Source: Neosynechococcus sphagnicola sy1
Lineage (GTDB): Bacteria; Cyanobacteriota; Cyanobacteriia; Neosynechococcales; Neosynechococcaceae
DNA: 64,000 nucleotides
Assembly: GCF_000775285.1 (NCBI RefSeq)
Contig: NZ_JJML01000026.1
Span: 56,151 to 120,150 of the forward strand
Direction: 5' to 3'
Below the pieces are notes generated by a model that searched no databases, was not told the DNA's origin, and worked only from the letters and a program-made list of their open reading frames with translations. The position numbers and the translations under genes are program-made. Of this stretch, positions 1,030 to 55,526 are shown piece by piece (position 1 is the first letter of the stretch; every line of letters starts with the position of its first letter).

Positions 1030-1536
1030 CTATAGCAATGACTGGAGTAGCGACTGGGCTCGCTTCAGGAACTGCTGCCGAGAAGGCTCGGGCACCCGAG
1101 CCGCGAGGTGATTCAATAGGTCGGCTGTGGATCTTGCCTCTGGCACCAGCTGTTGGATCAATAAAGAGGCGATGGGGCCGATCGCCTCAGCCAGCAGTTG
1201 TTCGAGTTGTTTCTGCTGAGCGGCGGATAGGGCATTGCTGAACTTCAACTTAGGCGGACTGGTGGTGCCAGCGGGAGTTGTTTCTGGAGTGGTCGTTGTC
1301 TGGGATGGCGATGCAGCTGGCTTCTGAAACCAGAGGGTGAGTTCCGCTGAACTTTCGACTAGGACACAAAAGTCTCCCGTATCAAGATAGCCCCGACAAC
1401 ACTTGAGTGCTTCTTGACGACTGATCTTGGGAAAGGACTGTTTTTTGACAAAGACCCGACCCAGAAACCTGGCTTCTGCTGAGGTTGACTGGGAAGAACC
1501 CAATAGTTCTAAATCTTGATCGTGTAGTAGCAACAT
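1030..1536 (-). CDS. hypothetical protein carrying a single C-terminal IGPIA module (LEQLLAEAIGPIASLLIQQL...)
   Basis: 168-aa ORF. Its C-terminal ~55 aa matches the module found three times in the Ser/Thr kinase at 3646..5557. A Thr/Pro-rich linker precedes it. The N-terminal ~75 aa is uncharacterised. Confidence 0.5.
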   Translation of the reverse strand: MLLLHDQDLELLGSSQSTSAEARFLGRVFVKKQSFPKISRQEALKCCRGYLDTGDFCVLVESSAELTLWFQKPAASPSQTTTTPETTPAGTTSPPKLKFSNALSAAQQKQLEQLLAEAIGPIASLLIQQLVPEARSTADLLNHLAARVPEPSRQQFLKRAQSLLQSLL

Positions 1537-1754
1537 TAGAAACTCACGATAGTAACGCTGACAATCCTCTCAAGCCTTAAACCTTGTTGCATGGCAGCTG
1601 GTTACCTAGCTGGCTGGTGCTTAAATCCTGTGGTGATGGAATTTGCCGATGAGACGGCATCACACCGCTGATTTAGTTTCGACATTGTATCAGGACAATC
1701 CAAAATACATGCGTAAACTTACTTAAAGTAGGGTCTGAAGCCTGGGGGAAGTGA

Positions 1755-2612
1755 TCAGTGCTGGAATAGCGGGGCTGGTTGCTCATGGATGTGCGTTTCA
1801 ATCGGCTTCACCTTCTCAATAAAGCGGATGAGAAACCCATAGTCAGGGGGCGGCGCATTGGGAACATACCCAGCTTCCGTGGCGATCGCCGGGCTGGCCG
1901 CGTTCATCGCCTGCTGAATCAACTGCTGCTGGTTACGCTCCACACTGGGACTGATTAAGACCGCACCAGGGGGAATTTTGCGGCTGGTGTGCAGCACCCG
2001 AAAGGTGCCGACTGGGAATTGAGGGCGCAGGCGAGCGAATTCATCTTGGGCCATCGCCCCCGCAGTCACTGCCCCCTGATCCACCCACTCCAGAACTTTC
2101 TGGGGGGTAGGGGCGATCTGGACAGCTGCTAAGGTCAGGCCATACAAATCGTAGAGAGGCAGGTAATACCCCGTAGCAGAACCAGGCTGGGTCAGCGCCA
2201 CTCGATGATTGGCCAGATCAGAAATTTGCTTCATCGGGCTATCTTGTAGCACCACCAGCACCGAATGGAGATTATTCACCCCTTGCAGGGGGAACAGAGG
2301 GTGATATTGAGCTTTGGCAATGGCGATCGCGGTTAATCCTGGAGGAGCAAATACTAAAGACCAAGCTTGGCGCTGAATTTGCTCCAAAGCCTTGACCTCG
2401 TTATAGGCCGGTTCCAGTTCAATCTGCGTCCTTAACTGTCCGGATAAATAGGTAAGAAACTGCTGGTACTGATCCAGGGATCGATTGCCTTCACCATAGG
2501 TGACAATTCCAATTGTTAACTTTCCAGAACCATTTTGAGAAGCCGTCTGCAAAGCTGCACAACCCGATAGTAAGGCGAGGATCTGATACAAGAGGAGTCG
2601 ACGTGGAATCAT
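1755..2612 (-). CDS. PhnD/SsuA-type periplasmic substrate-binding lipoprotein (orphan; no ABC permease or ATPase nearby)
   Basis: 285 aa. Signal peptide with lipobox (LLSGC). Phosphonate-binding-like fold signature (KLTIGIV...YLPLYDLYGLTL...). No transporter partner genes are adjacent. Confidence 0.6.
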   Translation of the reverse strand: MIPRRLLLYQILALLSGCAALQTASQNGSGKLTIGIVTYGEGNRSLDQYQQFLTYLSGQLRTQIELEPAYNEVKALEQIQRQAWSLVFAPPGLTAIAIAKAQYHPLFPLQGVNNLHSVLVVLQDSPMKQISDLANHRVALTQPGSATGYYLPLYDLYGLTLAAVQIAPTPQKVLEWVDQGAVTAGAMAQDEFARLRPQFPVGTFRVLHTSRKIPPGAVLISPSVERNQQQLIQQAMNAASPAIATEAGYVPNAPPPDYGFLIRFIEKVKPIETHIHEQPAPLFQH

Positions 2613-2716
2613 GGTTGAAGCAACTAACTCAATGGGAACTGTGAGGCTCTGACTGTACTGATTGATATCCTAGTGCTAGGCTGTAACGTGATTTTCTTTT
2701 AATTTTCTACAGACTT

Positions 2717-3622
2717 ATGATGATCAAGCATTGGTCTCTTAGTAACAAATTTAGTTTGCTATTGCTATTAATTTTCATTGGAGCGGTCTTAATTAGTGGC
2801 GTAGCCTTGTCAAGAACATTGAATCAAGTGGCTGAGAGCGTCGTTCAGGCTAAAGCCAATCTGTTATTACAAACCATGCTCTCGGTGCGGACTTATACCT
2901 CCACCCAAGTGAATCCAGAATTGGCACCTCGGCTGGAGACGGAATCAGCATTTTTGCCCCAAACAGTACCGGGCTATGCGGCTCGGGAGACCTTTGAAGA
3001 CTTTCGCAAAAACCCTGAGTACAATGATTTCTTCTACAAAGAGGCTACCCTTAATCCCACAAACTTACGGGACAAAGCAGATGGTTTTGAGTCAGAGATA
3101 GTTGAAAGCTTCCGTAATAACTCCAGCCTTAAGGAACTCAGTGGGTATCGCTCGACACCGGGGGGTGAATTGTACTACATTGCTCGCCCGATGATTATTA
3201 AGAAAGAAAGCTGTCTTCGCTGTCATAGTACCGCAGAGGCTGCTCCCAAAAGTTTAATCGCCACCTACGGCAGTGAAAATGGCTTCGGGTGGAAATTGAA
3301 CGACATTGTGGGGGCACAAATAATTTCTGTTCCTGCTCGGGAGATTATCACCAGTGCCCAACGATCCTTTGTCACCATTATGGGAATTGTGATTGCAGCG
3401 TTTGCCATTGCCCTACTGGTGATGAATCTATTTCTCAGACGGGCGGTGATTCGGCCCCTGAATCGGATTGCCAAAGCTGCCAATGAAGTCAGTACTGGCA
3501 ACATGGCGGCGGAGTTTGATGTCCAGTCCCGTGATGAAATGGGAACCCTGGCCACGGCTTTTACCCGGATGAAAACCAGTCTGGTAATGGCTATGGAGAT
3601 GCTGAGTCAACGCCGAAATTAA
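2717..3622 (+). CDS. membrane sensor stub: TM, DUF3365-like periplasmic c-type haem (CxxCH) domain, TM, HAMP; no output domain
   Basis: 301 aa. N-terminal TM (LLLLIFIGAVLISGVAL). Periplasmic domain with CLRCH. Second TM (IMGIVIAAFAIALLVMNLFL) is followed by a complete HAMP domain (RPLNRIAKAANEVSTGN...MGTLATAFTRM), and the protein ends about 20 aa later. Confidence 0.6.
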   Translation: MMIKHWSLSNKFSLLLLLIFIGAVLISGVALSRTLNQVAESVVQAKANLLLQTMLSVRTYTSTQVNPELAPRLETESAFLPQTVPGYAARETFEDFRKNPEYNDFFYKEATLNPTNLRDKADGFESEIVESFRNNSSLKELSGYRSTPGGELYYIARPMIIKKESCLRCHSTAEAAPKSLIATYGSENGFGWKLNDIVGAQIISVPAREIITSAQRSFVTIMGIVIAAFAIALLVMNLFLRRAVIRPLNRIAKAANEVSTGNMAAEFDVQSRDEMGTLATAFTRMKTSLVMAMEMLSQRRN

Positions 3623-3645
3623 GACAGGGCAACGATTCCGATGGC

Positions 3646-5557
3646 TCAGCTGGAGGGTAGCAAGACCGCCTGAAACGCTTGAGCTTGCTGAGGGTTGGCA
3701 ATGCGTTGGACAAGGGCTGCCACCAACTGACTGCGAGAGGCATGGGGGATTTCAGCCAGTGCCTCTTTTACCACTAAGGGGGCAATGGGGCCAATCGACT
3801 TTGCCAGTTCAATCTCACATCGTTGGATAAAGTCACGATCGACGGGGGGGACTGGCTGGGCTGGTTTCTGGGGCGATCGCCCCTGTCAATTGGGTGGGAG
3901 AACGGGGATCAAAGTCTTCGAGGGACTGGGTTTGCAGGAGTTCATACACTTGGGCTTGCAGCGATCGCCGAGCTGCTTCCGGGACTTGCATCAGCAATCC
4001 TTGGATAAAGCTCTGCCAGGTTGCCGCCTGTTTCAGGGATTGTTGCAGCAGCAAGGGAGCCAGGGGGCCAATCGCCTGGGTCAGGAGGGCTTCTAGTTTG
4101 TGAGCTAGGGGGGGCGGTAAGTTCAAACGACTCGGAAGAGAAGATTGGACTTCCGTGGCGACAGGGGCAAGTTGGGTCGGATTCGCAGCTGGTTTTGCAA
4201 CTTCTAAGGATGCGGGGTTAAACAGCGATTGAATTTGTGCCTGCACCTGGGGACGTGATAGCGCTGGGATTTGATTTAATAAGCGTTCCAACAACTGGTC
4301 ACAGGTGAGTCCTTCGACTAAAGCTTGGTTTAACAACAGGGGCGCGATGGGACCAATGACTTGGGTCAGTAAAGTGGCCAATTCCCGTTGGGAATTCTGC
4401 GTTAGATCGGATAACTGGGTGGAAATTTTCTGCTCCATGGCCGTAGAGGGGAACTCCCCAGGGTTCTTCTCTGGAGGGGGCAGGGTTGTCGCTGGTGGAT
4501 TCGTGCCCTCTGGAACTGGGAGGGCAGCAGGTGGATTACTGGCAGGAGCCGCAGCATCTGCACCAACGGTCGTATCAAAATTGCCAGCAACCAAAGGACG
4601 GGTCGGAGAGATCAGGGGAGGGGAGATCGCCGCTCGCAGAGACCGCTGTAAAATCTCTACCGTTGAACATCGCTGGCTGGGCTGCTTTTGGAGGCACTGC
4701 ATCACCACGGCTTCTAAAGCGGAGGGCAAGGTCTCACACCCCGGTTGCGATCGCAGGGGCTTGGGGGGCAGGCTGGTGTGGGCTCGAATCCAAGAGCTTG
4801 CCGTTGATCCCCCGGTTTTGCCCATCAAACCAAAGGGGTCGGTACCGCTGAGCATCTCATAGAGCATCATCCCGAGACTGTAGATATCAGCCCGACCATC
4901 CAGATCCATTGCTACCTCTAGTTGCTCTGGGGACGCATAGTGGAAGGTGCCAATGAACATATCCGTTTGCAGATTCGTCAGTTCTGCTTCTCCATCTAGA
5001 ATTTTGGCAATGCCAAAGTCAAGAATTTTCACCAATTCACCCAAGCCCGTCGGCACCAGAAAAATATTGTCCGGTTTCAAATCACGGTGAACAATCTTGA
5101 CTCGCTCAACTGTCTGGCTACCCTGACGTTGCAGTACCACCCCCTGATGGGCGAGTTGTAACCCAGTACACACCTGGCTGATAATGGCGACCGTATGTTC
5201 AACTGCCAGTCGTTTTTCCCGCCGGAGTAACTGTCCTAAGGTCTGTCCACTCAAATACTCCATCACAAAAAATGGATGACCTTCTGGGGTGATGCCGTAG
5301 TCGCTGACTTGAACAATATTTTCGCTACTGAGGGCTGCACACAGACTCACCTCGCGGGCAAACCGCTTCCGTACCTCTTCCGTCTCCACCAAGGCAGCTT
5401 TCAAAAGTTTGAGTGCAACTTGCTTTCCCAGCAACATATCGATGGCTAGATACACCTCACCCATCCCGCCCTGGCCCAAACGCCGTTCCAGACGATAGCG
5501 GTTTTTTTCACCAATCAAGCGCTGATGTTGAGAATCAGGCTGGGGCAGGGAACTCAT
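3646..5557 (-). CDS. Ser/Thr protein kinase with C-terminal triple IGPIA repeat module (frameshift in a G7 run at 3844-3850)
   Basis: The 574-aa ORF at 3833..5557 has Hanks kinase motifs (GQGGMGEVY, VALK, HRDLKPDNIF, DFGIAK, SPEQ). A Pro/Ala-rich linker follows, then two ~55-aa repeats (LATLLTQVIGPIAPLLLNQ; LEALLTQAIGPLAPLLLQQ). A third repeat (ELAKSIGPIAPLVVKEALAEIPHASRSQLVAAL...LLPSS*) lies directly downstream in the +1 frame. It joins the kinase frame if the C7/G7 homopolymer is shortened by one base. Confidence 0.8.
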
Positions 5558-7728: not shown

Positions 7729-7959
7729 ATGAGTTTTAGTACTTTACAACCAGTTGTTCCCCTTGGGGATGGGCAGTCATTCCAGGCTGAGTTTAAATCA
7801 CAAACTGGAACCTGGGTAAAACTCCGGGATCTCCCAACCCCCTATAGCTTCGATGAGGCATTCTTACTCTGTGAAGTCTTGGGTGGCTCCTGGGTCGCTT
7901 GGGTGCCTGACTGCGGCGAAGTTCTTCTCCAACCTAGGGAGTTTTACCGTCTGCCCTAA
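7729..7959 (+). CDS. small hypothetical protein
   Basis: ORF 7675..7959. The likelier start is the ATG at 7729 (MSFSTLQPVV...). Low-GC leader. No recognisable domain. Confidence 0.3.
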   Translation: MSFSTLQPVVPLGDGQSFQAEFKSQTGTWVKLRDLPTPYSFDEAFLLCEVLGGSWVAWVPDCGEVLLQPREFYRLP

Positions 7960-7974
7960 GACAGCAAGATAGCT

Positions 7975-8859
7975 TCAGCGTTGTTGCTGGGGAAAGAAAA
8001 TCACAGGATGCCAACTGCGTCGCAGAATTTCACCCCCAAAGCTGGGGATGGAGAGTTCCCAGAATTTGCCACAGTGCTCAGAGGTAATGGCGATGGCGCT
8101 GATATCAAGTTCCTGAGCACTTGCGAGTACTTCTGTAACTGGATTTCCCCGCCGGATCTCTACCGTGACTGCTAGATTTCCAGACTCCAGATTCGTTTTC
8201 GCGATCGCCAGTTGAGCTTCCGCTTGCTGCACCTTTGTGGCATGAGCCAGAGCATCCTGACGGGTTCCTTCCTCAACCACCCAACAGAGCAAGCACTGGT
8301 GCAGGGAATCACTGACTTGGTGTTGGGCATAGTGCTGAATCTGCTGCACCAAGAATTGAGCGGAATCACTGCCATCGTAAGGCAGCAGCAGATAGCGAAA
8401 CAGATGCTGACAACGCAAAGCTAACTCTTCTGCGGTAAAAGCAGCGGTCATCGCAGGCCGCAAATTCAAAATCGGGATTTCAGCGCGTTGGGATACCGCG
8501 ATGGTGTTACTACCAAATAACTTTTCATTCAACAGGTTACGACTGGGCATCCCCATCAGGATTACTTCCGAGCCATAGGCTTTTGCCACCGCCAGTACCC
8601 GTTCCACAGGATCCCCTGACTGGACTTCTACAACCACCTCAACTCCGGTTGGCACTTGCTGCAAGGCAGATGATAGCCGAGTTTGGGCCTGTTCTATTTT
8701 TTCGGTGTCAATACGGGGAATGCCCCCTCCCTCGTTGAGGGGGACGCTGTGCAGAAACACCAAATGACGAATGCCCCCTGCCGCTAAGTCGGGGACAAAA
8801 TGAATGAGGCGGTGCAAGCCATCGGCAAAGTCAGTACAGACTAGGCAGCGCTGAAACAT
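7975..8859 (-). CDS. universal stress protein, tandem UspA domains
   Basis: 294 aa. Two USP-like halves with nucleotide-binding loops (ILMGMPSRNLLNEKLFGSNT; IAITSEH.G...GGEIL). Confidence 0.75.
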   Translation of the reverse strand: MFQRCLVCTDFADGLHRLIHFVPDLAAGGIRHLVFLHSVPLNEGGGIPRIDTEKIEQAQTRLSSALQQVPTGVEVVVEVQSGDPVERVLAVAKAYGSEVILMGMPSRNLLNEKLFGSNTIAVSQRAEIPILNLRPAMTAAFTAEELALRCQHLFRYLLLPYDGSDSAQFLVQQIQHYAQHQVSDSLHQCLLCWVVEEGTRQDALAHATKVQQAEAQLAIAKTNLESGNLAVTVEIRRGNPVTEVLASAQELDISAIAITSEHCGKFWELSIPSFGGEILRRSWHPVIFFPQQQR

Positions 8860-9125
8860 AAAAGTCCATCTCGGAAATCGATCAACCCAGGGATATTTCT
8901 CCCTTCACCCTACCACTCTTGTTGTGTTTGGCACTGGTCTTCTAAAGGATGATTGCTAGAATTGATGACAGAGATTGGATTCTAGCCTATGAATTGCCCA
9001 GATTGCCAGAGTCAACAGATCGTGAAAAACGGCAATTAAAAGACCAGTGCCTTGGCAATTCAATTCACGATGCTGGATTTAATCCTGGCTGTTGGTGGGC
9101 CGAGAAAATTTTTAAAAAAACGAGA

Positions 9126-9563
9126 TCATTGGGGGGCAACTGTAATTTTGGCCGCGATCGCCGCTGGTATTTCCTGACTCGTCAACTGGGAAGTAACCGG
9201 GTCAACAGTCGCACAAACCACGGTTAATTGTCCCCGTGCCACTTCAATATCTGGCTGCTGCGTGAGGTTGCGAAAAATAAAGGTGTAGGTCAGAGATTTG
9301 GGCTGTTTCTTAGCCACGATCAGGTGAACTTCCAATTGATCTTCAAACCGCAGGGGATGGCGGTAGTCGCAGGTAGCCTGAACACGCGGCCAGAGAAGGG
9401 GAGGTTGATCCCCCATGGATGGGAGAACTGAAATACCCAGGGAGCGAAAGAATGCATGTTCTGCTGCTTCCATCCAACGAAAGAAATGGGTGAAATGTGC
9501 CACTCCGGCCATGTCAGTTTCAGCGAATTCGACCTGTCGCTGCGTCTTAAATTGGTAGGTCAT
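9126..9563 (-). CDS. hotdog-fold acyl-CoA thioesterase (YbgC/4-hydroxybenzoyl-CoA thioesterase family)
   Basis: The ORF spans 9126..9740, but the conserved core begins at the Met at 9563 (MTYQFKTQRQVEFAETDMAGVAHFTHFFRWMEAAEHAFFRSLG), the typical family N-terminus. Confidence 0.6.
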   Translation of the reverse strand: MTYQFKTQRQVEFAETDMAGVAHFTHFFRWMEAAEHAFFRSLGISVLPSMGDQPPLLWPRVQATCDYRHPLRFEDQLEVHLIVAKKQPKSLTYTFIFRNLTQQPDIEVARGQLTVVCATVDPVTSQLTSQEIPAAIAAKITVAPQ

Positions 9564-9865
9564 ACGCTGGGGGGTGTCAAGGGCGAAAGAATCCAGCGAA
9601 CAGTTGCAGATTTCCCTGTTGGTACTCTTGATTTTACTGAACGAGGGAGGGGATTGAATGACAATTAACTGACCGACTGACGACAACGATCTTGTCCGGC
9701 CATCCTGATAAAGAGATAAAGATTCACACTGTTCCCACACTTAATACTAATCAAAAATGAAGTCAAGTAAGATATTGGGAGAGCAAATCAGGGATGGCAG
9801 GAAGACTAAAACTGGAAATCACGCAGAAAGCAGGATACTTGGAAAAAGCCTGAAACAGGCAAAAG

Positions 9866-10378
9866 GTGGGACCCAGAAAGAGCGATCGCAAATGCTGTGG
9901 TGGCTCAAAACAAGACGGGCGATCGCCAACATCAGGAGTTAAGTCGGCGATCGCCCTGTTGGATTCGATCCAGAAAAAAGTGACCTGCTTACAGCAACTT
10001 CAGACCACCCTGCAACTGGAAACCCTTCGTCCCCTGGTGGGTCGATCCGAACAGGTCTGCCAATTGCCGCCCCACCGTGGGGCCTATGATCTGGCACTGG
10101 TGCGAGCCGTGGGTACGGCATCGGTCTGTGCTGAATATGCCCTGCCCCTGTTGCGAGAGCGGGGGGGTGCCATTCTCTATCGGGGAGACAATGGACGGGG
10201 GAAGATACCACTGCCCTAGCCCCTGTTGTCGAGCAACTGGGTGGTCGAATCACCGCCATTGAGGCCGTCGTCACACCCATCAGCCAGAGCAGTCGTCATT
10301 ACCTGAGCCTAGAGAGGCAACGATCCACCCCCGCCGAATTTCCTCGGGCGGTGGGGATTCCAGCGAAATATCCCCTTT
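9866..10378 (+). pseudogene. rsmG: 16S rRNA (guanine527-N7)-methyltransferase RsmG/GidB-like gene, C-terminal two-thirds only; 5' part degenerate
   Basis: The frame from 9866 reads ..AIALLDSIQKKVTCLQQL...YDLALVRAVGTASVCAEYALPLLRERGGAILYRG, a strong RsmG match. The RsmG C-terminus (..ALAPVVEQLGGRITAIEAVVTPISQSSRHYLSLER...AVGIPAKYPL*) continues to 10378 after a 1-nt deletion in a G5 run (10197-10201). I could not find a recognisable SAM motif I or N-terminal region between the thioesterase start (9563) and 9866. That stretch is AT-rich and has stops in every frame. Confidence 0.45.
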
Positions 10379-33358: not shown

Positions 33359-34346
33359 ATGAAGCTCACTGCACCACACGTCAGCATTGTCATCCCTGTC
33401 TACAACTGCGAACGATACATCCATCAGGCATTGACCAGTATTCTCAGCCAATCCTATCCCTCCTACGAGGTGATTGTGGTAGATGATGGTTCCACCGATC
33501 AGACGCGGCAGCAGCTCCAGTTATTTTGGCCGTTGATTTGCTATGAGTACCAGCCAAATCAGGGGGTTTCCAGTGCTCGGAATCGAGGCATCAACTTAGC
33601 GAAAGGCGAATTAGTTGCCTTTCTAGATGCGGACGACGTTTTTTTTGCCCAATAAGTTAGCCGCTCAGGTTGCCGTGTTCGATGCCCAGCCGGAGCTAGG
33701 CATTGTCCATAGTGGCTGGCGGCGAGTTACCCAGGACGGCGACCCCTTAACAGACGTGGAACCCTGGCACCATACGCCGCGCCTGAACCTGGAAAATTGG
33801 CTGCGCTGGAAGCCAATTTTACCCAGTGCCATGATGTTCCGTCGCAGTTGGCTAGAGCGAGCCGGAGGCTTTGATCCGCAGTTACACCAGGCAGAAGATA
33901 CTGATTTAGTGCTGCGGTTGGCTTACTTGGGCTGCAAAGCCGATTGGTTACGGCAGATTACGGTTTGCTATCGTCAACATGGACAAAGTGCCTTTAACCA
34001 GAGTTTGGCTCAGGCTAGATCCTTGGAAATCGTCATTGATCGAGTCTTTGCTCAACCAGAACTACCCGTCCCAGTGCGAATGATGGAAAACCATATCCGG
34101 TACAACACCTTTGTCTGGATTGCCTGGTTGCTCTATCACACGGGTAGCCCCAAGATCATGGTGCAGTACTTACAACGGTCTTGGCCCTACACACCCTACT
34201 CCACTGTTGAGACCATCGTCAACTGGTTGGAAAGTTTTAGCCAGTTTACGAGGGGCGTTGGCGGCAGCCTAGACGCAGATGCCCTAGGGCAGTCACCCGA
34301 GTGGCAACAGTTGATGCACTGGGTGCTAGACAGCCCTAAGTGCTAG
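33359..34346 (+). CDS. family 2 glycosyltransferase; split by a 1-nt insertion in a T8 run (33639-33646)
   Basis: VSIVIPVYNCERYIHQALTSILSQSYPSYEVIVVDDGSTDQT...LVAFLDADDVF| then (L)PNKLAAQVAVFDAQPELGIVHSG.. in the next frame. Reading the run as T7 gives a contiguous GT2 with DxD. Confidence 0.8.
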
Positions 34347-54309: not shown

Positions 54310-55526
54310 TGACCCGCATCTTTATTAGTACCGGGGAAGTCTCTGGGGATCTCCAAGGTGCGCTGTTAATTGCTGCTTTGCGTCGTCAAGCTCAGCAACT
54401 GGGAATTCCCTTGGAAATTGCCGCCCTCGGCGGCGATCGCATGGCAGCGGCAGGGGTCGACCCTGTTGGGGAAAACCCAGCCACATTGGCTCCATTGGAC
54501 TCCTGGAATCCCTCCCCTATTTGCTGCCAACCCTGACCGTGCAGCGCCAAGCCAAACGCTATCTGCGGCAGTACTCCCCCGATGTGATTGTCCTGATTGA
54601 CTATATGGGGCCAAATCTTGGCATTGGGTGGTTTGCCCGTCAGCATTATCCCCAGGTGCCCATCGTCTACTACATTGACCCCCCAGGAATGGGTGTGGTC
54701 CCTGAATCAACGCAATACTCGGCGGATTGTCCAGTTCACCGATCAGCTCCTGGCAGTGTTTCCCGGTGAAGCCCATTACTATCAGCAGCAAGGGGCGGCG
54801 GTTACCTGGGTTGGGCATCCCCTGTTGGATCAAATGTCCACAGCTCCCAGTCGAGAACAAGCGCGGCTGGCCTTGGGCATTGCCCCCAATCAATGGGCGA
54901 TCGCCTTGGTACCCGCCTCTCGCCAGCAGGAGTTGCAGACTTTATTACCCGTGATCCTAGAAGCTGCCCGTCAGCTGCAAGCCCAGATCCCCAATACTGA
55001 CCCCCAGCAACCCTTATTTTGGATTCCCCTTTCTTTAGAAGCCTATCGTGCTCACCTGCAACAGGCGATCGCCGCTGCTGGGTTACGGGCCCAACTGGTG
55101 CCAGACAGGGGGCATCCCCAAGGGGATTGGTTACGGCGCTGTGCGATCGCGGCGGCGGATTTAGCCATCACTAAATCTGGCACGGTGAATCTGGAAATCG
55201 CTCTCATGCAGGTACCCCAGGTGGTAATCTATCGGGTTAGTCCATTCACCGCTTGGGTGGCGCAGCATCTCTTGAAGTTCTCCATTCCCTTCATGGCCCC
55301 CCCTAACCTGGTGACAATGCGCCCGATTGTGCCGGAATTACTCCAGGGAAAGGCCACCGCTCCCAATATTGTCCGGGAATCCTTAGATCTCCTCCTCAAC
55401 CCTACTCGACGGCAGCAAATTCAGCAGGACTATCAAGCCATGCGGCAGTCTTTGGGGGAGCCTGGAGTTGCCGATCGCGCAGCTCTGGCAATTTTGAAAC
55501 TAGACCTATTGCGTCAATCAAAATGA
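54309..55526 (+). CDS. lpxB: lipid-A-disaccharide synthase; two compensating homopolymer indels (about 54471-54480 in an A4C3 run; C6 at 54679-54684)
   Basis: Three ORFs (54309..54536, 54521..54769, 54597..55526) are colinear with LpxB: MTRIFISTGEVSGDLQGALL.. then (S)IGLLESLPYLLPTLTVQRQAKRY..VLIDYMGPNLGIGW..VYYID then PQEWVWSLNQRNTRRIVQFTDQLLAVFPGEA... Confidence 0.85.

Follow-up and report, generated by a model that had tools for sequence, protein, structure and literature searches.

The four-gene cluster examined here, from the cyanobacterium Neosynechococcus sphagnicola, would encode a cyanobacterial Cache_heme-HAMP (CHH) system with a kinase output in trans, a reading to which we assign a probability of about 0.7. 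All four genes were present at the coordinates given in an earlier note, made from the letters of this 64-kb stretch of DNA (the window) alone, and they are listed with their features in Table 1. The note had proposed that the genes are functionally linked and that the sensor signals in trans. Both proposals, and a docking role for the module repeated in the kinase, are supported by sequence and by analogy, because the sensor is homologous to a CHH receptor, the module DUF8082 is shared, and a complex of the corresponding Pseudomonas proteins has been published. Receptor and bundle homology, the bundle fold and the conserved gene pairing were observed directly in this analysis.

Table 1. Genes and features of the cluster, in positions of the window
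Feature	Position	Strand	Details
Small protein	1030-1536	-	168 aa
DUF8082 module of small protein, type A	1051-1236	-	HMM E 3.7e-18; type A 76 vs type B 38 bits
N-terminal alpha/beta domain of small protein	about 1312-1536
PhnD-like lipoprotein	1755-2612	-	285 aa
Divergent intergenic region, PhnD-like gene / sensor gene	2613-2716		104 nt
Sensor, CHH-type receptor	2717-3622	+	301 aa
CLRCH haem-c attachment motif of sensor	3212-3226	+	residues 166-170
HAMP of sensor, predicted DUF8082 docking site	3431-3583	+	residues 239-289
DUF8082 module 3, type B	3646-3846	-	IGPIAPLVVKEAL; out of kinase frame; stop codon 3646-3648
Hanks-type Ser/Thr kinase as ORF	3833-5557	-	574 aa
G7 run (C7 on coding strand)	3844-3850		breaks kinase frame
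DUF8082 module 2 of kinase, type A	3947-4126	-	IGPLAPLLLQQSL; HMM E 9.6e-14; type A 60 vs type B 23 bits
DUF8082 module 1 of kinase, type A	4226-4411	-	IGPIAPLLLNQAL; HMM E 1.3e-13; type A 56 vs type B 23 bits
Catalytic domain of kinase	about 4643-5497		Pkinase E 1.4e-46

The sensor consists of an N-terminal transmembrane segment, a periplasmic sCache_heme domain (Tll0287-like/DUF3365; PF11845, E 1.5e-44), a second transmembrane segment and a cytoplasmic HAMP domain (PF00672, E 1.1e-13), the hydrophobic stretches spanning residues 6-36 and 214-245. It ends 12 residues past HAMP and carries no output domain, as the earlier note had described it. The note had also considered that this stub might be a gene fragment. 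Judged by its sequence family, however, it is a complete protein: the best 120 homologues were 283-386 aa long with the same two domains, and the family is a conserved cyanobacterial one of about 299 aa whose members always end after HAMP. The residues C166, C169 and H170 were invariant in all 22 orthologues aligned. Both cysteines of the sensor sit in the CLRCH motif, therefore it has no axial cysteine ligand, and this absence is the mark of NO-binding 'Cluster 2' proteins (bioRxiv 10.64898/2026.02.01.703092). Tll0287 of Thermosynechococcus (PDB 5b82) shares PF11845 and the CxxCH haem-c site, but this stand-alone sCache_heme protein is soluble, has only that one domain, ligates its haem axially through Cys and His and is presumed to have a redox role (bioRxiv 10.64898/2026.02.01.703092), whereas the sensor here is a two-transmembrane receptor with HAMP and without the axial cysteine.

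Over its full length the sensor was 38% identical to the CHH receptor of Pseudomonas azotoformans (E 3e-68), which was described together with its Ser/Thr kinase in May 2026 by Deshpande, Xu, Dunleavy, Zhulin and Crane (bioRxiv 10.64898/2026.05.25.727664). The neighbourhood, called undescribed in the earlier note, is thus of a kind that was already described in that preprint. Cryo-EM of the Pseudomonas complex showed that four-helix bundles of the kinase dock on the receptor HAMP, every bundle touching one HAMP subunit, with one kinase per receptor dimer; nanomolar binding, haem-NO chemistry and ligand-dependent phosphorylation were also reported (bioRxiv 10.64898/2026.05.25.727664). The two systems have in common the architecture and length of the receptor, the lack of the axial cysteine, an adjoining soluble PknB-like kinase, and a kinase tail of DUF8082 four-helix bundles with an IGP(I/L)A helix, type A then type B. 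They differ in host (cyanobacterium here, proteobacterium there), in gene order (convergent here, whereas the Pseudomonas genes form an operon on one strand together with that for a PP2C phosphatase) and in the number of bundles (three, A-A-B, in the corrected kinase described below, against two). No PP2C phosphatase was found in the sensor-kinase gene cluster of N. sphagnicola. A free single-bundle protein is additional here, and where N. sphagnicola has the conserved head-to-head PhnD-like gene, the Pseudomonas locus encodes a 282-aa protein whose FecR-like match is weak. The residue phosphorylated in the Pseudomonas HAMP, Thr256 (bioRxiv 10.64898/2026.05.25.727664), aligns with Met263 of the sensor, a column occupied by Met or Leu in 22 of 22 cyanobacterial orthologues aligned; therefore, receptor phosphorylation at that site cannot be the read-out here.

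The gene pairing was widely conserved. A DUF8082-module gene lay convergent just past the sensor gene in 62 of 79 related genome loci, so that the neighbourhood check proposed in the earlier note came out strongly positive, and the terminal type-B module in related loci ended at most 23 nt from the sensor stop. When the search was reversed, starting from 17 metagenome DUF8082 loci with good flanking sequence, a CHH receptor was found in 10 and another Cache-HAMP stub in 3 more.

The protein encoded head-to-head with the sensor is a lipoprotein (lipobox LSGC, Cys18) and a clear member of PF12974 (E 2.9e-30). As the earlier note had seen, it has no ABC transporter beside it: the 64 kb of the window, read in all frames, yielded no ABC-ATPase signature of the LSGGQ type. 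It would be possible, if rather doubtful, that the sensor and kinase work as described while this lipoprotein merely serves transport, as the binding protein of an ABC permease and ATPase that are encoded elsewhere, its adjacency reflecting only co-regulation or history. Its family membership agrees with such a role, and so does its absence beside Nostoc-type sensors and beside non-cyanobacterial CHH sensors, which means that it is not essential to the sensor system; transport genes are also noted to be enriched near the related STAC/Af1503-type receptors (PMC4834066). Its score was, however, far under the PhnD equivalog cut-off (46 vs 261 bits) and far under the curated phosphate/phosphonate subfamily cut-offs. 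The kept adjacency also speaks against this reading: an orthologue (46-64% identity) was divergent from the sensor within 1 kb in 36 of 77 loci from several cyanobacterial orders, the gene lay within 8 kb of the sensor in 42 of 80 loci, and the head-to-head gap had a median of 172 nt (37 loci). A promoter search of the intergenic region gave no significant match.

The sole solved relative of the PhnD-like protein found by sequence was XAC2383 (PDB 5ub3, E 2e-7), which in Xanthomonas citri is paired as a PF12974 periplasmic binding protein with the membrane diguanylate cyclase XAC2382. In both cases an orphan PhnD-family binding protein is found beside a membrane signalling receptor, not a transporter, though the similarity is distant. 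XAC2382 reportedly lacks a haem domain and carries a GGDEF output itself. As a neighbour of the sensor, the PhnD-like protein is specific to cyanobacteria, and its kept adjacency and its relative XAC2383, a sensory binding protein, make it a plausible putative partner of the sensor.

The kinase showed the motifs VALK47, HRD157 and DFG180 and no transmembrane segment, which bears out its description as a soluble Hanks-type kinase. Precomputed annotation placed PF26309 (DUF8082) on it. The earlier note gave it three repeats and a stop 24 nt from that of the sensor, reading through a frameshift that it did not mention. The third module does exist, but the open reading frame as sequenced runs no further than 3833 and contains just two; three-frame translation placed the third in another reading frame, without a start codon of its own. 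Deletion of one base in the G7 run gave a kinase of 636 aa with modules A-A-B, ending at the stop codon of module 3, with 23 nt between it and the stop codon of the sensor. The frameshift is probably a sequencing error, and the true kinase is most likely the 636-aa form. A sequencing artefact is the likeliest cause because two further homopolymer frameshifts were found in the window, breaking two conserved genes, a GT2 glycosyltransferase and an LpxB-like gene, which points to systematic errors at homopolymers in the data.

A real frameshift would leave the kinase with two type-A bundles and the type-B bundle as a dead remnant, in a system that is decaying or in which the small protein supplies the bundle. 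The Logan assembly of run SRR29904084, an independent assembly, has the same G7 and is 100% identical over 8,959 nt, with the kinase gene called as 574 aa, and the missing start codon of the third module agrees with a remnant. We nevertheless regard this as improbable, as the out-of-frame module is intact and scored best of the four (HMM match 3661-3846, E 9.2e-23; type B 82 vs type A 48 bits), and several relatives share the short distance at which the corrected kinase ends from the sensor stop. The kinase as sequenced lacks type B, the only type retained in single-module partners such as those of Nostoc, and this counts against the CHH reading of the cluster.

The repeated IGPIA module, which the earlier note could not assign to a named family, corresponds to Pfam PF26309 (DUF8082). 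An HMM built from related loci and run over the 64 kb found exactly four copies, all within the gene cluster. In the structure model, kinase modules 1 and 2 formed four-helix bundles (pLDDT >90), and the modelled bundles were joined by linkers of about 30 residues, as in the Pseudomonas kinase. The published helix IGPLARFLVRKSLN was matched exactly in the Pseudomonas kinase, which also carries PF26309. DUF8082 was found fused to cyclases, histidine kinases, caspases, TIR domains and kinases, and also together with non-haem Cache-HAMP stubs; the modules track output-less HAMP receptors regardless of the fused enzyme.

The top PDB match of the DUF8082 profile was Af1502 (E 0.0052, of modest significance over 26 aligned residues; E 0.31 with a cyanobacteria-only profile), whose sequence includes ...ELKKEIGPIAKIFLNKAMES. 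Af1502 is a STAC domain encoded directly after the output-less HAMP receptor Af1503 in Archaeoglobus fulgidus, is a monomer in solution and a dimer in the crystal, and has a proposed role in solute-transport regulation, a function not shown there (PDB 5a1q; PMC4834066). STAC and DUF8082 share a four-helix bundle of about 65 residues, a conserved (L/I)GPxxA motif where helix 1 meets helix 2, and genetic coupling to receptors with HAMP as the sole cytoplasmic part. The HAMP of Af1503 was also the closest solved structure to the sensor HAMP stretch (E 1.7e-5). Af1502 is archaeal and free-standing, unlike the DUF8082 kinase tails, and because so many proteins contain four-helix bundles, the match in fold is a weak argument by itself. 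No literature link of STAC to DUF8082 or to CHH kinases was found.

By analogy with Pseudomonas, the module is supported as a protein-protein docking domain; this part of the earlier proposal holds, while the module-module binding that it envisaged is not expected, as the bundles of the solved homologue bind HAMP subunits. That the modules serve self-association or recruitment of the small protein, the sensor being merely a neighbour, would fit the multiple copies per protein, the free single-copy protein and the Af1502 crystal dimer, but is very improbable given the bundle-HAMP contacts and single kinase per receptor dimer of the solved homologue, the monomeric Af1502 in solution, the way the modules track output-less HAMP receptors regardless of the fused enzyme, and the single module of Nostoc partners.

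The single module copy noticed in the small protein is genuine, its match being too strong for chance (Table 1), and PF26309 is annotated on this protein as well. Its N-terminal alpha/beta domain is followed by a disordered Pro/Thr linker and one type-A bundle, and it was modelled with strands in residues 2-71 and helices in 105-167 (pLDDT 85). At a Calothrix locus a homologue with the same architecture occupies the position of the kinase.

Every functional step in N. sphagnicola is an inference, as are the parts played by the small protein and by the binding protein, and what the kinase phosphorylates. The receptor would form a dimer in the membrane, and its periplasmic domain would carry a c-type haem attached at C166/C169/H170. 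Because the axial cysteine is missing, the distal haem side would be open, so NO or another small gas is probably the ligand. The PhnD-like lipoprotein may act on the haem domain as a periplasmic ligand-binding co-sensor. On the cytoplasmic side, where the receptor would offer HAMP alone, the soluble kinase is predicted to attach to the HAMP subunits through its C-terminal DUF8082 bundles, which are STAC-like and have the IGPIA turn where helix 1 passes into helix 2, and movement of HAMP on ligand binding would change which targets the tethered kinase phosphorylates. The small protein is predicted to bind there too, through its type-A bundle, and would be a competitor at this HAMP site or else an adaptor for its N-terminal domain.

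The locus would therefore be a variant within a known kind of signalling system, one whose description is very recent. What is new relative to the preprint is the variety of DUF8082 fusions, the non-haem stubs, the match to Af1502/STAC and the PhnD-like neighbour.

All four genes that the earlier note had described as a linked signalling neighbourhood were present in the window (Table). HAMP domains normally pass signals on within one protein, and receptors that end on a HAMP domain have been puzzling since Af1503, the output-less HAMP receptor of Archaeoglobus fulgidus, became the structural model for HAMP. The sensor of the cluster, which is 100% identical to the annotated protein of Neosynechococcus sphagnicola sy1, is a receptor of this kind. 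Its haem-c motif, CLRCH, occupies residues 166-170 of a periplasmic sCache_heme domain (PF11845), and C166, C169 and H170 were invariant in an alignment of 22 orthologues. Two hydrophobic segments (residues 6-36 and 214-245) were found, and the sole cytoplasmic domain is a HAMP at residues 239-289 of 301, with the stop 12 residues later. Homologues numbered 4,930 proteins at E <1e-10; the best 120 of them were 283-386 aa long, had the same two domains, were 60-70% identical and came from many cyanobacterial genera. Since all 22 aligned orthologues terminate right behind the HAMP, the stub without output recognized in the earlier note is a complete protein and not a fragment.

Genes of the sensor cluster in the window
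Gene product	Position	Strand	Domain matches
Small protein, 168 aa	1030-1536	-	PF26309 DUF8082
Binding protein, 285 aa	1755-2612	-	PF12974 'Phosphonate-bd' E 2.9e-30, LSGC lipobox
Sensor, 301 aa	2717-3622	+	Tll0287-like/DUF3365 E 1.5e-44, HAMP E 1.1e-13
Hanks-type Ser/Thr kinase	starts 5557	-	Pkinase E 1.4e-46

C166 and C169 are the only cysteines of the sensor, and none lies outside CxxCH. By the criterion that NO-binding 'Cluster 2' proteins have no axial Cys (10.64898/2026.02.01.703092), the sequence of the window sensor would therefore place it in the sensor type. The same work renamed the DUF3365/Tll0287 domain sCache_heme, and reported that a signalling-type member from Pseudomonas azotoformans without the axial Cys binds NO tightly.

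The kinase contains VALK, HRD and DFG, and has no TM segment. Its match to NF033483 was confined to the catalytic domain, so that it is a soluble PknB-like kinase without TM or PASTA domains. The earlier note had given it three copies of the IGPIA module. Three modules do exist, but the ORF as sequenced is 574 aa long, stops at 3833 and contains only two of them; a G7 run at 3844-3850 precedes the third (KSIGPIAPLVV...), which is read in a different frame. When one base was removed, the kinase became 636 aa long with its stop at 3646-3648. The distance between the kinase and sensor stops, given earlier as 24 nt, is 23 nt, and is obtained only after this correction, as the shift had gone unmentioned.

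The frameshift is most likely a sequencing artefact, because the out-of-frame third module is intact and has the top score of the four modules (E 9e-23), several relatives likewise end at most 23 nt from the sensor stop, and the window contains two further homopolymer breaks. One is a T8 run at 33639-33646 that splits a family-2 (GT2) glycosyltransferase; deletion of one T joins the upstream frame VSIVIPVYN...DDGSTD...LDADDVF to the ORF at 33627-34346 to give 338 aa, and the break looks like a homopolymer sequencing error. The other is a C6 run at 54679-54684 that splits an LpxB-like lipid-A-disaccharide synthase (ORF 54597-55526); deletion of one base extends this ORF to 398 aa with the N-terminus still garbled, and there may be a second shift further upstream. 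A real mutation in the kinase gene is less likely than an artefact, although the Logan assembly of run SRR29904084 was identical to the window over 8,959 nt, the G7 run included. Programmed +1 frameshifting at the C7 run was also considered, but the site is without the usual features of such frameshifting, and the two other homopolymer breaks favour sequencing error. We keep the artefact reading as the most likely one, and flag the assembly of the window as prone to homopolymer errors.

The module itself, which the earlier note could not assign to a named domain family, is DUF8082 (PF26309) in precomputed annotation, with matches at E <=1e-5 on the 168-aa protein, the 574-aa kinase and a Pseudomonas kinase described below. 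The lack of an hmmscan match is due to the Pfam copy that we scanned, which predates PF26309. Against Pfam and NCBIfam models the module reached sub-threshold noise only (NGO1945_C, E 0.0045; HvfC RRE, E 0.07), and neither the kinase tail nor one module by itself had a match when PDB was searched by sequence. An HMM built only from cyanobacterial sequences, taken from relatives of the sensor locus, detected four copies in the 64 kb of the window, each of them inside the cluster. With a nominal database size of one million, the same HMM recognized two domains in each of the proteobacterial kinases, at E 1e-16 to 1e-24. The modules were divided into two subtypes, type A being internal and type B C-terminal, and their order was A-B in the Pseudomonas kinase, A-A-B in the frame-corrected window kinase, A in the small protein and B in single-module partners. 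AlphaFold modelling gave four-helix bundles with pLDDT >90 for both the small protein and the kinase tail, joined by disordered linkers of about 30 residues, in agreement with the described tail of the Pseudomonas kinase.

When one genome per species was scanned, at least 557 places encoded a relative of the sensor, from which 80 loci with 8-kb flanks were kept. A module-bearing gene was convergent with the sensor and immediately 3' of it in 62 of the 79 loci with enough flank, and a PhnD-like orthologue of the binding protein (46-64% identical) faced the sensor head-to-head at a distance of up to 1 kb in 36/77 loci (median gap 172 nt) and anywhere within 8 kb in 42/80, these counts not being independent events because about one third of the loci come from Nostoc species. 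Co-occurrence of stub and IGPIA genes in related genomes, which the earlier note had proposed as a check, is thus borne out. Loci of the Nostoc type have a single-module kinase, and the PhnD-like gene is absent from them. When all flanking ORFs were clustered, neither a phosphatase, a response regulator nor any other additional conserved partner emerged, the remaining clusters being Nostoc synteny or generic families. Scans of the cluster for promoters, terminators and repeats were uninformative.

Some loci showed other arrangements. L036 (5155-13680) has three tandem sensor genes; two of them are each accompanied by a DUF8082 partner, and one by a PhnD-like gene. L023 and L026 (both at about 7900-10040) have two consecutive sensors and lack a module gene. 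In Leptolyngbya sp. BL-A-14, one sensor/DUF8082 locus is on a 122-kb plasmid (CP166618.1) with two module genes downstream, a location which hints that the cassette is horizontally mobile. The MAG contig of L026 (CALRKB020000011.1) is labelled 'Rhizobium sp. Q54' and contains a typical cyanobacterial sensor and PhnD-like locus; the label is probably the result of mis-binning or contamination.

To the best of our knowledge, the first partner for a HAMP-ending receptor was reported in 2026 in Pseudomonas. The Cache_heme-HAMP (CHH) receptor in that work has the architecture Cache_heme-TM-HAMP with no output domain, and is bound with nanomolar affinity by an operon-linked PknB-like kinase through two C-terminal four-helix bundles with conserved helices IGPLARFLVRKSLN and IGPIARIVVSRALR (bioRxiv 10.64898/2026.05.25.727664). 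According to the same preprint, each bundle is located under one HAMP subunit in a 3.47-A cryo-EM map, one kinase is bound per receptor dimer, phosphorylation of HAMP Thr256 is enhanced by NO, and a shared operon of receptor and kinase, commonly including PP2C, is frequent but not defining. Its deposited models (PDB codes 35YV and 35YX) have helix 2 with IGPIA packed under HAMP AS-1. With the catalytic-domain alignment from its supplement, we retrieved the homologous kinase of Pseudomonas sp. HN11 (P0121), whose catalytic domain is 96% identical to that published for P. azotoformans and which has the exact IGPLARFLVRKSLN and PF26309. The receptor encoded beside P0121 matches the window sensor at full length, with 38% identity across 293 residues (E 3e-68).

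The window locus shares with the Pseudomonas CHH system PF11845 with CxxCH, two TM segments, a HAMP-only cytoplasmic part and a soluble PknB-like kinase with a tail of small four-helix bundles that contain the conserved IGP(I/L)A helix. The earlier ideas of a HAMP-only haem sensor that signals to the kinase in trans, and of the module as a docking domain, are probably right, and are experimentally shown in the Pseudomonas homologue; for the same reason, the neighbourhood cannot be called undescribed, as its kind is already known. New here are the cyanobacterial form of the system, accompanied by a binding protein and a free single-bundle protein, the range of enzymes bearing the bundle, and, probably, the identity of the bundle with the STAC family of Af1502, the small protein encoded beside Af1503.

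The two systems also differ. Receptor, kinase and PP2C are on one strand in Pseudomonas, whereas the genes are convergent in the window and in most cyanobacterial loci, and PP2C is absent from the gene table of the window locus. Pseudomonas Thr256 aligns with Met263 of the window sensor, and each of the 22 aligned cyanobacterial orthologues has Met or Leu there, so that phosphorylation of this receptor position cannot be the output here. The PhnD-like neighbour is missing from the Pseudomonas locus. A 282-aa protein is encoded 30 nt upstream of the Pseudomonas receptor (L082, 6233-7081, +), with no precomputed Pfam match and a weak match to FecR (E 0.0026), and the preprint text names only kinase and phosphatase in the operon (10.64898/2026.05.25.727664). 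This gene was rejected as a counterpart of the PhnD-like gene, as BLASTP gave E 1.4 and FecR was its only match.

The range of bundle partners was analyzed with 41 sensor-adjacent DUF8082 proteins. A protein kinase domain was present in 28 and an adenylate/guanylate cyclase domain in nine, some of which had a kinase domain too; HisKA_3 with HATPase_c was found in two, caspase in two and TIR in one. Caspase (Peptidase_C14), NarL-type HisKA_3 + HATPase_c and TIR domains occur with bundles beside CHH sensors (L019, 8908-11022; L047, 8919-10223; alignment A2), which suggests that effectors of the cell-death or immunity type can be wired to a CHH receptor. A degenerate DNA pattern for ELAxxIGP(I/M)A retrieved 120 metagenome stretches, 94 of them with true modules. 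Among the 17 true-module stretches with adequate flanks, a CHH receptor was within 3.5 kb in 10 and a different Cache-HAMP stub in three. L083 and L180 exemplify DUF8082 proteins that directly adjoin an output-less receptor with a non-haem Cache domain: in L083 (4421-6654), DUF4388-wHTH-DUF8082 precedes a dCache_2/sCache_2-HAMP stub and a cytochrome c3-like gene, and in L180 (1428-4676), REC-kinase-DUF8082 precedes an sCache-HAMP stub. The varied partner enzymes and the non-haem stubs indicate that the bundle follows output-less HAMP receptors, and not kinases or haem.

The binding protein scored 46.1 bits against the PhnD equivalog TIGR03431 (cut-off 261.1) and 50.1 bits against the subfamily model TIGR01098 (cut-off 112), far under both cut-offs, and there was no ABC ATPase signature, and with it no PhnC/PhnE neighbour, anywhere in the 64-kb window. 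We therefore rejected its identity as the PhnD of a phosphonate transporter, and assign it to the broad PF12974 family only; 'orphan', as the earlier note had called this lipoprotein, is fair. The only solved relative in the sequence search was 5ub3, XAC2383 (E 2e-7), reportedly a periplasmic protein that partners XAC2382, a membrane diguanylate cyclase. As in the XAC2383 type, the binding protein adjoins a membrane receptor, and in the metagenome sample the PhnD-like gene was found only alongside cyanobacterial-type sensors. From the relationship to XAC2383, the conserved head-to-head position and the missing transporter, we infer that the binding protein may be a co-sensor.

In the small protein, the N-terminal ~75 residues (1312-1536, -) form a confident alpha/beta domain in the AlphaFold model and match no Pfam family. 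An exhaustive search found this domain elsewhere fused to DUF8082, to two DEP domains, to DUF4278-like 'YRG' tails, and to PAS and Ser/Thr kinase domains (P0242, P0251, P0254, P0257, P0296 and others). The sensor partner at the Calothrix locus L043, a protein of 164 aa, has the architecture of the small protein, with N-terminal domains 38% identical (E 4e-15). Likeness of the domain to a kinase N-lobe was seen only in weak fold-search matches, and hhalign did not support it. Foldseek with the small-protein model against PDB returned nothing below E 0.3, and in a word-based search the small protein matched nothing but itself.

Af1502, a 68-aa protein translationally coupled to the archetypal HAMP-only receptor Af1503, is the founding member of the STAC domain, whose defining features are the LGPx(x)A motif that links helices 1 and 2 and the coupling to receptors with only HAMP (PMC4834066). 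DUF8082 is likewise a four-helix bundle of 60-90 residues with (L/I)GPx(x)A joining helices 1 and 2, and it is genomically coupled to HAMP-only receptors, at the cyanobacterial loci and at metagenome loci that include non-haem Cache-HAMP stubs. Af1502 was the rank-1 PDB match of DUF8082 profiles, with E 0.31 for 26 cyanobacterial modules and E 0.0052 for 50 diverse ones, in alignments of 20-26 residues (segment YKKLLDELKKEIGPIAKIFLNKAMES). The best solved match to the HAMP of the window sensor was the HAMP of Af1503. At the end of the sensor HAMP (3560-3622, +), the stretch F-x-R-M-K-T-S-L-x-M-A-M-E-M-L recurs almost unchanged in Af1503 (RLRRSLKVAMESLEE), the Pseudomonas receptor and the non-haem stubs; it may mark receptors that end on a HAMP, or contribute to the docking surface. 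The CHH preprint makes no mention of STAC, Af1502 or Af1503 (10.64898/2026.05.25.727664), and our literature search found no paper mentioning DUF8082. Homology between STAC and DUF8082 is likely, not proven.

Taken jointly, these results can be read as follows, with a probability that we put at roughly two in five. DUF8082 and Af1502 would be one ancient, portable family of HAMP-docking adaptors, through which output-less Cache-HAMP receptors, with or without haem, would drive any enzyme that bears a bundle, the partners seen being Ser/Thr kinase, nucleotide cyclase, histidine kinase, caspase, TIR and a DUF4388 protein. Cyanobacteria would have added the PhnD-like protein as the third part of a split receptor, feeding a second signal into the haem domain, and free single-bundle proteins such as the 168-aa protein would compete for the docking site. 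If this is true, the partner of Af1503, the textbook HAMP model, would be Af1502 bound under the Af1503 HAMP. Binding of bundle and HAMP in cyanobacteria, binding of Af1502 and Af1503, and signalling dependent on the binding protein are predicted.

The 2026 Pseudomonas work, the window locus and its relatives together suggest a general solution for receptors that end on HAMP: a docking bundle shared by cyanobacteria, proteobacteria and probably archaea is attached to many output enzymes, and in cyanobacteria is combined with a periplasmic binding protein. A likely role is thereby assigned to a Pfam domain of unknown function, DUF8082, and to a conserved family of cyanobacterial receptors, encoded at no fewer than 557 places in the scanned species genomes.
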